Source of the DNA: Candidatus Kapaibacterium sp.
GTDB lineage: Bacteria; Bacteroidota; Ignavibacteria; Kapaibacteriales; UBA2268
Reading direction: 5' to 3'
DNA length: 64,000 bases
NCBI GenBank assembly: GCA_963665665.1
Contig: OY762428.1
Coordinates: 768,001 to 832,000 of the forward strand
Each line of letters opens with the position of its first letter. Within the stretch, counting starts at the first letter, position 1. This document shows positions 35,008 through 55,376 of this stretch, in pieces. A program made the position numbers and the translations under genes. Below the pieces are notes generated by a model. That model saw only the letters and a list, made by a program, of their open reading frames with translations. It was not told where the DNA came from and ran no database searches.

Positions 35008-35757
35008 ATGAAAAAAATACTTACTCCGCTAATATTATTTATCATCATAGCAGCATGTGACGATTCTCCGTCAGGGCCGGCAGAATACGACTATGACGAT
35101 TTTAAAATCCTTGACAACCAGCGCGAAGGAGTTATAATGCCCCTTGCCACAGGTCATAAATGGGTATATGAAAACTGGAAGTTATACCCGGATGGAACAA
35201 TAAACGAAGAGAAGCAATTGGATTCGATAGTAGTTGTCAATTCAGTAGATACTTTGGAAGGGCCAGGGTATATATTAAATGGATATGTGCCTGGAATTGA
35301 TTTTGTTAATTATCCAATTTCAAATAAAGTAAACGGACTATGGTTTCTTGTATCCGAAGGCCATTTAAAATTCAAATATCCAATAAAAAAAGGAGAAAAA
35401 TGGAAATATTCGAATCCTATTATCAGAATTGCACAATCGAAAGATACAACCAAATGGGAGAATAAATTTATCCGATCGGAAATTGTAAATGAAATAGTTG
35501 TAACAAGTGTTTCTGAACAAATCAAAACTCCTTTACAGGATTTTAAATCAGTTGTTTATAAAAAGCATCAAAAAGTTAAAGATACAGAAGAATTAGAAGG
35601 AGATTATTATCCTGTCCGGGCCGCAGAAGCAATTATTACAAGCTATTTAGTTCCGGATATAGGAATTGTAAAAATTGAGATATATTGGAAAGAATATAAT
35701 ATGGATAATTTTTACTTGCGTTGGGTATCTGAATTAACCCACTACGAACTTTATTAA
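35008..35757 (+). CDS. Tandem lipoprotein 2 (type B N-terminus)
   Basis: IAAC-DDSPSG; same family motifs. Confidence 0.8.
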   Translation: MKKILTPLILFIIIAACDDSPSGPAEYDYDDFKILDNQREGVIMPLATGHKWVYENWKLYPDGTINEEKQLDSIVVVNSVDTLEGPGYILNGYVPGIDFVNYPISNKVNGLWFLVSEGHLKFKYPIKKGEKWKYSNPIIRIAQSKDTTKWENKFIRSEIVNEIVVTSVSEQIKTPLQDFKSVVYKKHQKVKDTEELEGDYYPVRAAEAIITSYLVPDIGIVKIEIYWKEYNMDNFYLRWVSELTHYELY

Positions 35758-35769
35758 CCAGACATTACC

Positions 35770-36513
35770 ATGAAAAAAATACTTACTCCCCTATTAATAT
35801 TTATCATCATCGCAGCATGTGACGATTCCCCGTCCGGGCCGGCAGAATACGACTATGACGATTTTAAAATCCTTGACAACCAGCGCGAAGGAGTTATAAT
35901 GCCCCTTGCCACAGGTAATAAATGGGAGTATGAGACAATATCATACAATTATGACGGTTCAGTTAATGATACATCAACAATGGTATATAATGTTTTAAAT
36001 CCAGTTGATTCTTTAGATAATAAAGGGTTTTATTTTGATAAAGATTTAGTTTATTTTTCTTCAAACAACCCGGTAACAAATAAAACAAATGGATTTTGGA
36101 TTGCAGCTTGTAGGAAGTTTTTGGCTTTTAAATATCCGGCAAAGCGTGGCAATCATTATTTGCATTCTTACACTTTTAAATACCCGTCTCTCGTCGTTGT
36201 TATTGAAAACGGAGATACATCAAATAAAATTATTGATGTTGAGACACAGTTAATTTATGATTTCAAAGTTCTTAGTACGAATGAAACTGTTCAAACCCCT
36301 GCCGGAAAATTCAAAGCATATGTTTATGAATTAAATATGTGCATGGATAATCTTTCTGACGAGAACGTTGTAAACCGTTATTTTAAATTTAAATATTTCA
36401 TTGCTCCCAATATTGGCATTGTTAAAATTAATTATTACTACGAACAAAACAATTTAGAATCCGATTTTAAATTATGGTCTGAAAATTATCTTGCTCATTA
36501 CGAACTTTATTAA
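35770..36513 (+). CDS. Tandem lipoprotein 3 (type B N-terminus)
   Basis: First about 50 aa near-identical to gene 2; TPAGKF, APNIGIVK. Confidence 0.8.
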   Translation: MKKILTPLLIFIIIAACDDSPSGPAEYDYDDFKILDNQREGVIMPLATGNKWEYETISYNYDGSVNDTSTMVYNVLNPVDSLDNKGFYFDKDLVYFSSNNPVTNKTNGFWIAACRKFLAFKYPAKRGNHYLHSYTFKYPSLVVVIENGDTSNKIIDVETQLIYDFKVLSTNETVQTPAGKFKAYVYELNMCMDNLSDENVVNRYFKFKYFIAPNIGIVKINYYYEQNNLESDFKLWSENYLAHYELY

Positions 36514-36525
36514 CCAGGCATTAAA

Positions 36526-37248
36526 ATGAAGAAAATACTTACTCCGCTAATAATATTTATCATCATCGCAGCATGCGACGATTCTCCGTCCGGGCCGGAT
36601 ACTTATACTTTGGATAATTACAAAATACTGAAAGATCAGACCCATAATGTGATAATGCCGCTGGCCGACAGCAACCATTGGGAATACCAGGTTCTTAAAT
36701 CCAGTTGTCATGATGATGATTGTTATATAACAATTTATGACTACCCGGATACCCTTAGAGGAAAATATTTTTTTCTTGGTTCAAATATTGGTTTTCTCTC
36801 ATGCAGTGGATATTTAAGTTCAAATACTGATGAAGGGCTTCTGCTACTTGATTCAAACATGAAGCAATTCTTTAAATACCCGATCAAAGTTGGCGATACA
36901 TACGATGTAGAAATTTCATTCAAAGTACCTTATCTTTATTACTTTTCGGAAAACGATTCTACGGCAGTTGTTGCAACGGATAGCATATTATTTAGATATA
37001 CATTAATTTCAAATAATGAAGAAATAACAACTGATGTTGGTTCATTTAGTACTTATGCATATAAAGTCGAATCCTTCATGGTATTTCCTGAAGGATCAGA
37101 CTGCCAGACTGAACTGGCCTGGGATACTTTCTATTATTTTGCCCCTGGCATAGGATTAATTAAATATCAAACTTATAAATATAATTATAAAACTTCTGAA
37201 TATACTATTTTGGAAAAATTAATCCTTAAAGAATATACTTTGAATTAG
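36526..37248 (+). CDS. Tandem lipoprotein 4 (type B signal peptide, type A mature N-terminus)
   Basis: MKKILTPL signal as in genes 2/3, then DTYTLDNYKILKDQTHNVIMPLADSN as in gene 1. Confidence 0.8.
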   Translation: MKKILTPLIIFIIIAACDDSPSGPDTYTLDNYKILKDQTHNVIMPLADSNHWEYQVLKSSCHDDDCYITIYDYPDTLRGKYFFLGSNIGFLSCSGYLSSNTDEGLLLLDSNMKQFFKYPIKVGDTYDVEISFKVPYLYYFSENDSTAVVATDSILFRYTLISNNEEITTDVGSFSTYAYKVESFMVFPEGSDCQTELAWDTFYYFAPGIGLIKYQTYKYNYKTSEYTILEKLILKEYTLN

Positions 37249-37310
37249 CATCCAAAAAAGTTCAATTTAACACCTGCCCCCTGCCTGCCCCGACAGGTCG
37301 GGGAAGGGCG

Positions 37311-37584
37311 GGGGTGGTTTCTTAAACATTCCCCTCCAGTGGAGGGGTGGCGAGCGCAGCGAGTCGGGGTGGTTTCTTTTTCTTAGTCCCAAGGTATTTT
37401 TATCCACGAGAATGCACGTGGCTATTGAATTTTGCGATATTCTGGATGGATTGTCATTCTGAGCGGAGCGAAGTATCCATTCTTCATACATTATCTGCAA
37501 TCAAAGATAGATTCTTCGGTCGCTTCGCTCCTGAAGCCTGCCCCTGCCTGCACCGATTTATCGGTGACGTGTCGGGGAATGACA
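37311..37584. repeat. Composite palindrome mosaic, left copy
   Basis: ggggtggttt..., gagcgcagcgag.cggggtgg, tatccacgag..gcacgtggctattgaattt, tgtcattctga..gaatgac, in the same order as 38657-38956. Confidence 0.85.
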
Positions 37585-37761: not shown

Positions 37762-38060
37762 TGCCTTGGCCGGAGTTATTGAATCATTGTTTGGCCTTAA
37801 TGTAGTGAAATTTGACCTCATTGAGGTCTTGTTTGGCCTTATTGAGGACTTGTTTGGCCTTACTGAGGACTTGTTTGACCTTATTGAGGTCTTGTTTGAC
37901 CTTATTGAGGTCTTGTTTGACCTTACTGAGGACTTGTTTGACCTTATTGAGGTCTTGTTTGACTTTACTGAGGTCTTGTTTGGCCTTACTGAGGACTTGT
38001 TTAGCCTTACTGAGGACTTGTTTAGCCTTATTGAGGTCTTGTTTGGCCTTACTGAGGTTA
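37762..38060 (-). repeat. 21-bp tandem array A (11 full units plus degenerate units)
   Basis: Unit like gaccttattgaggtcttgttt; its reverse complement aligns to the array B unit. Confidence 0.95.
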
Positions 38061-38061
38061 C

Positions 38062-38544
38062 TCATTATCTTCAAACAAGGCATCATTATCTTCAAACAAG
38101 GCATCAATGACTCCGACCAAGGCGTCAATGCCTTCAAACAAGGCATCAATGACTCCGACCAAGGCAGCAATAAAGCAAAACATTGCTGCAATAGCTTCAA
38201 CCAAGAGTTCATTATCTTCAACCAAGACGTCAATAACTTCGAACAAGGCATCAATGACTTCGACCAAGGCAGCAATGACTTCGAACAAGGCATCAATAAA
38301 GCAAAACATTGCTGCAATAGCGTCGACCATTGGTACATTGATTTCGAACAAGGCGTCATTATCTTCAAACAAGGCGGCAATGACTCCGACCAAGGCGGCA
38401 ATGACTCCGACCAAAGCAGCAATAACTCCGACCAAGGCATCAATAACTTCGACCAAGGCGTCAATGCCTTCAAACAAGGCAGCAATGGATTCAAACATTG
38501 GTGCAATAACTTAGACCAAGGCAGCAATAGGTTAAACCATTGGT
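38062..38544 (+). repeat. 21-bp tandem array B (23 units)
   Basis: Unit like tcaatgacttcgaccaaggca, strict 21-bp register. Confidence 0.95.
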
Positions 38545-38656: not shown

Positions 38657-38956
38657 GGGGTGGTTTTATTAAACTGCTCGCCCCGCGATCTCCGTATCCC
38701 GACGCAAAAAAGGGAAAGGATTTCCCAATCCTCTTTTCTTTCGGATAAGATATCCGAAAGAGCATCGGAGCGCAGCGAGACGGGGTGGATTCTTTTTCTT
38801 AGCCTCCTCCCTTATCCACGAGCTAAAGCACGTGGCTATTGAATTTAACGATGGTAAAACTGCATGTCATTCTGAACGCCAGCGAAGAATCCATTCTTAT
38901 TACATTATCTGCAAAGGAAGATGGATTCTTCGGTCGCTTCGCTCCGTCAGAATGAC
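38657..38956. repeat. Composite palindrome mosaic, right copy
   Basis: Direct repeat of 37311-37584 with different internal insertions. Confidence 0.85.
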
Positions 38957-55152: not shown

Positions 55153-55376
55153 GTAACTACTCAGCACAAAGGAAAGATTTAATGGATATGGATAATAATT
55201 GAAGAAAATGTCACTCTGAACAAAGTGAAGAATCTATTCTTCATAATTTTATCCAAAAAAAAAATGGATTCTTCAGTCGCTTCGCTCCGGAAGCCTGCCC
55301 CGACGTGTCGGGGAATAACAATTTTGCAATTATTCTTTTCATAAACAGAACAATATTATATTTGCTGAGCAGTAAC
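55153..55376. mobile_element. 224-bp MITE with IS66-type ends and 8-bp target-site duplication
   Basis: gctttccg|gtaactactcagca ... tgctgagcagtaac|gctttccg. Confidence 0.88.

Follow-up and report, generated by a model that had tools for sequence, protein, structure and literature searches.

How a hairpin of about 20 bases comes to stand inside other repeats, and inside copies of itself, is the question raised by a stretch of 64,000 nucleotides of Candidatus Kapaibacterium sp. (GenBank assembly GCA_963665665.1, contig OY762428.1, positions 768,001 to 832,000 of the forward strand), hereafter called the window. The window is part of a single contig of 5,458,198 bases with 38.6% G+C, and the genome is denoted G000. 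An earlier note, made from the letters of the window alone, had pointed out three hairpins tagged with CCTG at positions 37284, 37547 and 55294, and had proposed that they are copies of a minimal mobile unit that targets other repeats. The three units were located as claimed, and the proposal was supported, the same gain of 21 bases being found in a repeat of a Cytophagales genome and in a hairpin loop of Caldithrix. Judged from the alignments, the unit lands 3' of a G in other repeats and in itself, with no target duplication.

The CCTG-tagged hairpin unit

The unit is formed by CCTG, a stem of 6-7 bp (YMCCGA/TCGGKR) and a short loop, about 20 bases in all. With 20-22 bases and one hairpin, it has no coding capacity. 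When the window was searched with a degenerate form of the unit, four matches were obtained (the three units and one minus-strand reading of the first) against 0.10 expected, and the maximum in 100 shuffles was one per shuffle. The genome-wide pattern search suggested in the earlier note confirmed the enrichment over chance. Perfect CCTG+6/4/6 hairpins were found 96 times, 70 of them with the stem core CCGA/TCGG, whereas five first-order Markov genomes held 7-15 such hairpins each and none with the CCGA core. Moreover, the pattern CCTGYMCCGANNNNTCGGKR occurs 75 times in the genome (39+36) and the reversed pattern does not occur. Since 75 pattern matches stand against 0 for the reversed pattern, and 70 core members against 0 in the simulated genomes, the unit was counted as a real family. 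Depending on the search rule, 75-80 copies are present in G000; the set of 80 units used below was collected with a slightly looser rule, and its CCTG tag is fixed by the construction of the search. Related copies with CCTT or CTTG in place of CCTG were also observed.

The compensatory stem change that had been noted in the window copies extends to the 80 units, in which each of three pairs is seen in two Watson-Crick forms: C-G (38 units) or T-A (32) at pair 1, C-G (64) or A-T (13) at pair 2, and C-G (52) or T-A (18) at a seventh pair made by the outer loop bases. These counts are of non-independent events, as many copies share descent. Both outer stem positions are perfectly paired in 70 of the 80. 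The stem is effectively one of 7 bp around a two-base centre, and it covaries. Each of the three window units folds as DNA into a hairpin of -5.5 to -6.2 kcal/mol with six 5' bases unpaired. The last stem base belongs to the unit, units of the form T..A recurring across many contexts and genomes. The copies occupy intergenic mosaics and are mostly extragenic; they are short palindromes of high copy number, as are repetitive extragenic palindromes (REPs). The Rfam search of the window gave no family match, and the 14-base core of the unit was not matched in the published papers searched.

Empty, filled and nested sites

Each unit was aligned with its 60-base flanks to the genome, seeking paralogues with abutting flanks. 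At least one paralogous empty partner was obtained for 57 of the 80 units. The host palindrome had been described as empty, single and double (nested) at three places of the window (Table 1), and all three states were confirmed by alignment, the double state differing from the single one by exactly 21 columns, TGCCTGCACCGATTTATCGGT. The three units do not belong to one host series: the copy at 37284 lies in a separate small hairpin, CCCCGC-CA-GCGGGG, distinct from the large host palindrome. This small hairpin is empty 7 times in the genome and filled in many copies. A minus-strand reading of the copy at 37284, with a CCTT tag, is also possible (37288-37307).

Among the palindrome arms starting exactly with GGATTCTTC, 184 are empty, 34 of single size, 14 of double size and 3 others. 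Each of the three palindrome subfamilies, as defined by the downstream flank, has empty, single and double members; therefore, repeated insertion or gene conversion is needed. In the nested context, ..cctgcccc-g-acgtgtcgggg.. becomes ..cctgcccc-T-g-CCTGCACCGATTTATCGGTG-acgtgtcgggg.., with a net gain of 21 bases, and the outer unit is uninterrupted in 15 paralogues. In a module that is not a hairpin, ..gaatccacccc-g-actcgctgcgctc.. becomes ..ccacccc-(A/T)-g-CCTGTCCCGACGTGTCGGGA-actcgc.., once again with a net gain of 21, and one aligned unit of this module has 23 empty partners. A second palindrome subfamily, ..ttcag^aatgac, shows a clean gain of 20 or 21 bases. In the main palindrome, ..gctccgTCAG^aatgac is compared with ..gctccgGAAG-unit-aatgac, a net gain of 20 plus two changed bases. 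The junctions are clean in the contexts labelled B, C and C2. A gain of 20, as first described, holds for the main palindrome, while the nested context and most others gain 21.

A target duplication of two or more bases was not found in any of the G000 contexts aligned, as the earlier note had it. Every context is accounted for, with no extra substitutions, by one rule: the unit is placed 3' of a G, and this G is itself preceded by one added base, in most cases A or T. Put differently, the donor is a 22-base (A/T)G-CCTG-hairpin whose overlap with the target is G (+21) or AG (+20). Two other junction models were tried and rejected. A 21-mer ending one base short of the stem and inserted 5' of a G was ruled out by the recurrence of A-ending units across contexts, and a 4-base target duplication (CGGG), possible in the Cytophagales genome G076, fails at the nested site.

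In G000, the unit is preceded by G in 77 of the 80 copies, by AG or TG in 73 and, before that, by CCCC in 46, and it is followed by A in 71. Insertion between G and A is thus a fair account of this genome but not of others, in which the target varies beyond the preceding G. The unit offers the same G^A within its own stem (YMCCG^A). At genome position 2,206,2xx there is a triple nest that follows the same rule at each level, the third unit being a different one. The claim that all insertions lie inside other hairpins held for some hosts only. The sequence shared by the largest flank cluster (..ccacccc-g^actcgctgcgctc.., 29 copies) does not form a hairpin, and the immediate flanks of the units in G000 pair no more often than shuffled ones (5/80 vs 5%). 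In the other genomes, these flanks pair in 24 of 81 cases, whereas shuffling gives 8% on average and 17% at most.

The 80 units fall into 20 flank clusters, three of them with 29, 20 and 14 members and 17 of them singletons, and a 21-base tandem array of one and the same kind lies next to 33 of the 54 unit loci. Most copies are probably passengers of larger repeats that were multiplied, and roughly 15-20 separate placements remain when these are set aside. The only recurrent genes near the units are pseudo-open reading frames (pseudo-ORFs) of the 21-base arrays and an insertion sequence (IS)-type transposase.

As a separate observation, the palindrome arm at G000:C1:3135693-3135749 lacks 11 bases between two CCTG-containing direct repeats when compared with its neighbour at 3134478, and it is likely a slippage deletion inside a nested pair.

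Features of the window

The window features are collected in Table 1. The hairpin of the nested inner unit has a folding energy of -5.5 kcal/mol (z -5.0). The stretch just upstream of the mosaic repeats (35008-37248) contains three lipoprotein-like genes in tandem, paralogues of 240-249 aa whose N-termini are nearly identical. At 37787-38529 there is an array of 21-base tandem repeats of about 0.75 kb, open in all six frames with heptad-like pseudo-ORFs and flanked by mosaic repeats. A conserved stretch of about 200 bases between the palindrome and the 21-base array recurs about 45 times.

Table 1. Copies of the unit and host repeats in the window.
Feature	Position	Strand	Remarks
Unit copy 1	37282..37303	+	TG + CCTG + CCCCGA/CAGG/TCGGGG; unit CCTGCCCCGACAGGTCGGGG from 37284
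Module ..gaaaccacccc-g^actcgctgcgctcgcc.., empty state	37350..37379	-	Site filled in 29 paralogues is 37364/37365
Host palindrome GTCATTCTGA...GAATGAC, double (nested) state	37453..37583	+	Outer arms and inner unit are paired in the DNA fold
Outer unit CCTGCCCC-G-ACGTGTCGGGG, interrupted by the inner unit	37537..37577	+	21 extra alignment columns vs the single state
Nested insert	37545..37566	+	Extra T 37545, retained G 37546, inner 20-base unit CCTGCACCGATTTATCGGTG 37547-37566
Host palindrome, empty state	38866..38956	+	Insertion point ..tcag^aatgac at 38950/38951
Host palindrome, GTCACTCTGA...GAATAAC variant, single state	55210..55319	+	6 empty paralogues of the subfamily
Unit CCTGCCCCGACGTGTCGGGG	55294..55313	+	Commonest sequence type; letter-identical in other phyla

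Polarity and distribution across genomes

The host palindrome is present in its empty form in other genera of the family, hairpins of this stem number 0 in the three relatives tested (G006, G007 and G018), and the empty form in G076 is a perfect GTAG-type REP. Therefore, the filled state is the derived one, and the differences are insertions, not deletions. The uninterrupted outer unit is likewise the common form in G000 and in other phyla. The relatives match the palindrome only, with the flanking genes unmatched, the collection being one without a congeneric genome. Sixty other genomes of the order were searched, and the unit was found in none of them.

A scan of one genome per species (596 Gb) placed the exact 20-mer in at least 91 stretches, against about 70 expected by chance on a rough estimate. 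Single hits, such as those in a conserved Dehalococcoidia stretch, were disregarded, and only genomes with many copies and zero reversed-pattern controls were used. These were the metagenome-assembled genomes of a member of the Cytophagales (G076; Bacteroidota, phylum checked) with 123 units, of Caldithrix abyssi (G077; Calditrichota, phylum checked) with 74, and of a Paludibacter (G078) with 27. The variation of stem and loop in the three is of the same kind as in G000. In G076, the REP AGGGCGGG-G-GCAAGCCCCGCCCCTAC is empty in 49 of 62 matches and filled in 13, the filled form reading AGGGCGGG-A-G-unit-GCAAG.., with a net gain of 21. These host REPs come in doublets, one member being filled and the other empty. 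The loop of a GTCATCCT...AGGATGAC hairpin in G077, CCTGAGC-NN-G-TCGAAGG, reads N-G-unit in 16 of the 100 matches listed (174 in total), again with a net gain of 21.

The same loop position of G077 also holds other inserts. A second, unrelated CCTG-tagged hairpin (stem GCCCGC/GCGGGC) was seen in 2 of the matches listed, for example at C10:12678-12714, and a tagless version of the hairpin and a 42-base insert were observed as well.

An expansion of hairpins with the stem YCCCGA..TCGGGR was seen in 5 of the 26 family genomes (97 in G000, 92 in G005, 74 in G085, 26 in G082 and 21 in G009, with controls of 1-14). On the 5' side of the hairpin, G000 and G009 carry CCTG, and G005 and G085 carry different letters (22 loci inspected). 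The patchy distribution together with the near letter-identity across phyla indicates horizontal spread, and the unit would have come in on larger DNA. A phage vehicle was considered and dropped. The strict pattern gave 0 matches in viral contigs, and the 56 matches of a looser pattern are about what chance would give by a rough estimate. Additionally, five units in tandem with a 24-base period were seen in the IMG/VR contig L191 (121-236).

A candidate mobilising gene

The correlation with GIY-YIG genes, which the earlier note had listed as a check, gave a mixed outcome, in that hairpins of the same stem bracket two identical small genes of this kind but the gene and the hairpins co-occur poorly across genomes. 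Six PF01541 matches were found in G000, and the only two small ones are identical genes of 81 aa. They lie in tandem behind tRNA-Ser(GCT) at G000:C1:1891383-1892420 (locus L001, 1397-2500). Each is followed by a partial tRNA copy in which the anticodon arm is replaced by TCCCGA-TGCAA-TCGGGA, and these copies (91-93 nt) are called tRNA-Cys gca by ARAGORN. Upstream of the pair there are four tandem copies of the tRNA 5' half with the same foreign arm.

Nineteen loci of GIY-YIG homologues (12 + 7) were scanned. A flanking hairpin with the exact stem was detected in the two closest homologues, those of G085 and G011 (53-56% identity), and in one GIY-YIG locus each of G077 and G078, a second locus of G078 having a one-letter variant. 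A record of Niastella has the unit itself, about 27 bases past the gene. A tRNA is present in 7 of 9 such GIY-YIG loci. Several dispersed hairpins of G085 are preceded by ..GCA, as is the cassette hairpin (8 loci inspected). NCBIfam gave only a sub-threshold group I intron endonuclease match for the 81-aa protein, and the search of the published literature returned nothing on a bacterial GIY-YIG/tRNA/palindromic mobile hairpin of this kind. The 81-aa single-domain nuclease behind tRNA-Ser is thus the first candidate for the mover and the best lead, with a weak link to the unit, and its role is possible though doubtful. An unrecognised enzyme is at least as likely.

Elsewhere in the genome, at G000:C1:3515072-3515210, four tandem 41-base repeats, each with the hairpin TCCCGATTCATCGGGA, directly follow an apparent tRNA gene 3' end.

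Proposed explanation

We propose that the unit, which has no gene, is an extremely small mobile DNA element of the kind represented by REPs or small dispersed repeats, a non-autonomous hairpin that would be moved in trans as single-stranded DNA and then amplified together with its hosts. A probability of about one half is given to this explanation. After horizontal arrival on larger DNA, a hairpin-specific enzyme not encoded by the unit would move it in trans as single-stranded hairpin DNA, to accessible GC-rich repeats that often form hairpins. The alignments show that the unit enters 3' of a G, in G000 mostly at G^A and often after CCCC, with (A/T)G-CCTG-hairpin replacing the target G to give +21, or an AG target giving +20. 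Entry at the G^A of its own stem produces the nested states, and the unit then also multiplies as a passenger of its host repeats. Anatomy, junctions, nesting, polarity and distribution were observed, and the enzyme, the single-stranded intermediate and the horizontal transfer are inferred.

Several observations weigh against this proposal. No act of movement was seen, with no same-species genome for comparison, and the contigs of a near-identical strain (X4) keep the unit at 55294 and run through to 55313, with no unit-only polymorphism. The filled main palindrome differs from the empty one also by two flanking bases (TCAG vs GAAG), for which gene conversion or templated copying looks a better fit than cut-and-paste. 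Microhomology-mediated copying would likewise agree with gains of both 20 and 21 and with the overlap of G or AG seen at the 5' junction. Of the 80 units, 63 belong to three flank clusters and could be passengers of host-repeat amplification. As regards the candidate gene, the cassette hairpin of G000 is preceded by GGCA, not CCTG. With the query used, the gene was found in only 2 of the 5 hairpin-rich genomes of the family (G000 and G085), and it was not found in G076, the genome richest in units; G011 has the gene yet only 3 hairpins. The nearest solved relatives of the 81-aa protein are UPF0213 proteins, not a shown Ssn nuclease. Furthermore, a nuclease alone cannot join DNA.

In the contigs of a near-identical strain (runs X4 and X5), one joint skips the whole 155-base host element (55197-55351) and has 7 other letters instead. 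This joint may be an empty site of the host element; with a shorter side of only 22 letters, it was not counted.

Alternative explanations

The chief rival, which is considered unlikely, needs no dedicated enzyme. A stalled polymerase would switch template through microhomology, copy the unit and return, gene conversion would spread the copy, and the phyla would be reached by larger repeat-bearing DNA. The overlap of the donor (A/T)G with the target at the 5' junction (G for +21, AG for +20) and the co-converted flanking bases of the palindrome context (TCAG to GAAG) are as expected from such copying. Microhomology in G-runs or C-runs is present at several junctions, the targets are repeats and so offer homology, no enzyme gene of the two families compared in 26-31 genomes tracks the unit, and the arm at genome position 3135693 is a derivative with a deletion between two CCTG repeats. 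However, the boundaries of the element are identical in at least three unrelated hosts in three genomes, the nested junction cctgcccc^g has no microhomology to the ends of the insert, and the 17 singleton contexts have no flanking homology. Template switching also leaves the dominance of one near-identical 20-mer in distant phyla unexplained.

The earlier note had favoured the logic of HUH enzymes (IS200/IS605, RAYT). An HUH enzyme could act in trans, the unit being the substrate of a Y1 transposase like RAYT or TnpA and CCTG the counterpart of GTAG, and this is quite unlikely given the genes scanned. The form of the unit agrees with such an origin, with an unpaired 5' tetranucleotide, a hairpin, a fixed adjacent base, no target duplication, and nesting in REPs and mosaic repeats; REPs inside small palindromes have been published (PMC3733652). 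Y1 genes are present in all five unit-bearing genomes tested (G076-G080), but the CCTG-tagged unit was found at 0 of the 10 Y1 loci scanned in these genomes; one locus of G076 (L149) has an untagged TCCCGA hairpin of the same stem about 270 bases from the gene. The sole free-standing Y1 gene of G000 (153 aa) is flanked by different hairpins that contain GTAG/CTAC. One Y1 gene of Caldithrix is flanked by three hairpins with the core CCGA-N4-TCGG, one preceded by CCTGC and another by CTGC. As a link this was rejected, since the CCTGC hairpin occurs only in 3 local copies and is absent from G000, G076 and G078. Across the 26 family genomes, no association of Y1 presence with hairpin abundance was observed, Y1 being present in 16 of them, including the hairpin-free G007 (11 matches), and not in the hairpin-rich G085. 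Nor is there a bias of orientation by replichore (right 22+/24-, left 17+/13-), the assignment being rough because of asymmetric GC-skew extremes. Finally, the unit has one hairpin, not two different ends.

Aside from the free-standing gene, a weak match to Y1_Tnp lies inside a 1399-aa methylase-like ORF of G000 (C1:2723172-2727368, minus) that has an N6-methylase motif (NPPY) and a low-complexity SENPL repeat. Y1-like matches inside ORFs of 980-1225 aa were seen in six other family genomes, and this looks like a conserved architecture.

It is very unlikely that the unit is immobile by itself, a few old insertions or deletions having been followed by the amplification and recombination of larger repeats. 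The concentration of the units in three flank clusters and beside the 21-base arrays would be expected in that case, as would the lack of unit-only polymorphism in public contigs, and the inner unit CACCGA...TCGGTG is found only nested. Against it stand the 17 singleton contexts, the three palindrome subfamilies each with empty, single and double states, the unrelated hosts in other phyla that carry the unit at +21, and the triple nest with a third, different unit. A selected functional site, such as a hairpin bound or processed by a conserved protein or RNA and not selfish DNA, would account for the compensatory changes at three pairs and for the near-identical sequence across phyla, but it is extremely improbable for a unit that lies inside other repeats and itself with no fixed position relative to genes, that was not found in 60 genomes of the order and that has no Rfam family in the window.

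Significance

The movement of the smallest repeats, such as REPs without transposase, cyanobacterial small dispersed repeats (SDRs) and mitochondrial GC clusters, is a long-standing question. The proposed element is among the smallest mobile-looking elements known, and G000 offers unusually clean material for it, with one defined 20-base unit, a defined site and dozens of empty, single, double and triple paralogues, together with the same event in a classical REP of another phylum. The question lends itself to tests that use simple oligonucleotides and two small candidate proteins. If an enzyme were found, it would be a compact sequence- and structure-specific tool for single-stranded DNA, and if the GIY-YIG lead were true, a large uncharacterised family, the UPF0213-type proteins, would be drivers of hairpin insertion on single-stranded DNA. 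In practice, the inserts split and lengthen other repeats and create spurious ORFs and assembly breaks, public contigs stopping at 55.3 kb.

Comparison with known systems

In Nostoc punctiforme and its relatives, Elhai et al. reportedly described in 2008 the repeats SDR1-8, of 21-27 bases, several of them hairpin-forming, nested and patchy in distribution, and with no known enzyme. By these features, the cyanobacterial SDRs resemble the unit in being short and dispersed, in nesting in each other and in other repeats, in their patchiness and in the lack of a known enzyme. They differ in sequence and in host group, and the unit has a defined tag and hairpin, a G^A self-target and a presence in several phyla.

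The IS200/IS605 elements (IS608, ISDra2) encode TnpA, have two different hairpin ends and show a replication-strand bias. The hairpin ends and the lack of target duplication are alike, and the single-strand logic and the insertion beside a short fixed sequence may be, the target of the unit varying between genomes beyond the preceding G; by contrast, the unit has no gene, a single hairpin and no bias of orientation. The GC clusters and double-hairpin elements of fungal mitochondria are tiny GC-rich palindromes found inserted in each other and in the tips of hairpins (PMC4478555). They are organellar and eukaryotic, and their sequences are unrelated to the unit.

The Ssn single-strand nucleases (GIY-YIG, cd10448) are associated with the hairpin repeats NTS and SRM (Chenal et al. 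2025, PMC11893778). The likeness lies in a small single-domain GIY-YIG gene bracketed by a hairpin of which tens to hundreds of further copies are scattered through the genome. The host palindrome of the unit starts with GTCATTC, as NTS does, and the reversed filled arm (GTCATT-CCCCGA..TCGGGG-CAGG) nearly fits the SRM pattern given there. However, the SRM pattern overlaps only 2 of 76 units and has 13 matches in the genome against 16 in the reversed control, with no enrichment. The UPF0213 relatives of the 81-aa gene and its poor co-occurrence with hairpin abundance set the two systems further apart, and NTS is not described as inserting into other repeats in the sections consulted (PMC11893778).

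A close likeness in form is with the REP/REPIN/BIME repeats and their RAYT transposases. REPs are 20-40-base palindromes that carry an unpaired tetranucleotide, GTAG or CGTC, and they are extragenic, of high copy number and arranged in mosaics (Di Nocera et al. 2013, PMC3733652; REPIN paper, PMC3116915). In the first of these, the CGTC class is given as being without a known transposase, and GTAG-23 REPs of Thermomicrobium roseum are reported inside small palindromes (PMC3733652). The unit shares the palindrome, the unpaired tetranucleotide at one end, the high copy number, the extragenic and mosaic placement and the insertion in small palindromes. It differs in its tag, CCTG instead of GTAG or CGTC, in its size of 20-22 bases at the bottom of the range, in inserting into its own stem up to three deep, and in that no scanned Y1 gene is flanked by it. 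REPs are regarded as lineage-specific, whereas the unit is near letter-identical across phyla. The kind of element is already known, including REPs inside small palindromes (PMC3733652), and CGTC-type REPs are now tied to Ssn. It may be speculated, with considerable doubt, that the CCTG-tagged hairpins make up a third REP-like superfamily beside GTAG and CGTC, one that would spread horizontally and nest in itself at 20-22 bases and would have its own unrecognised enzyme, for which the UPF0213-type GIY-YIG cassette is the candidate.

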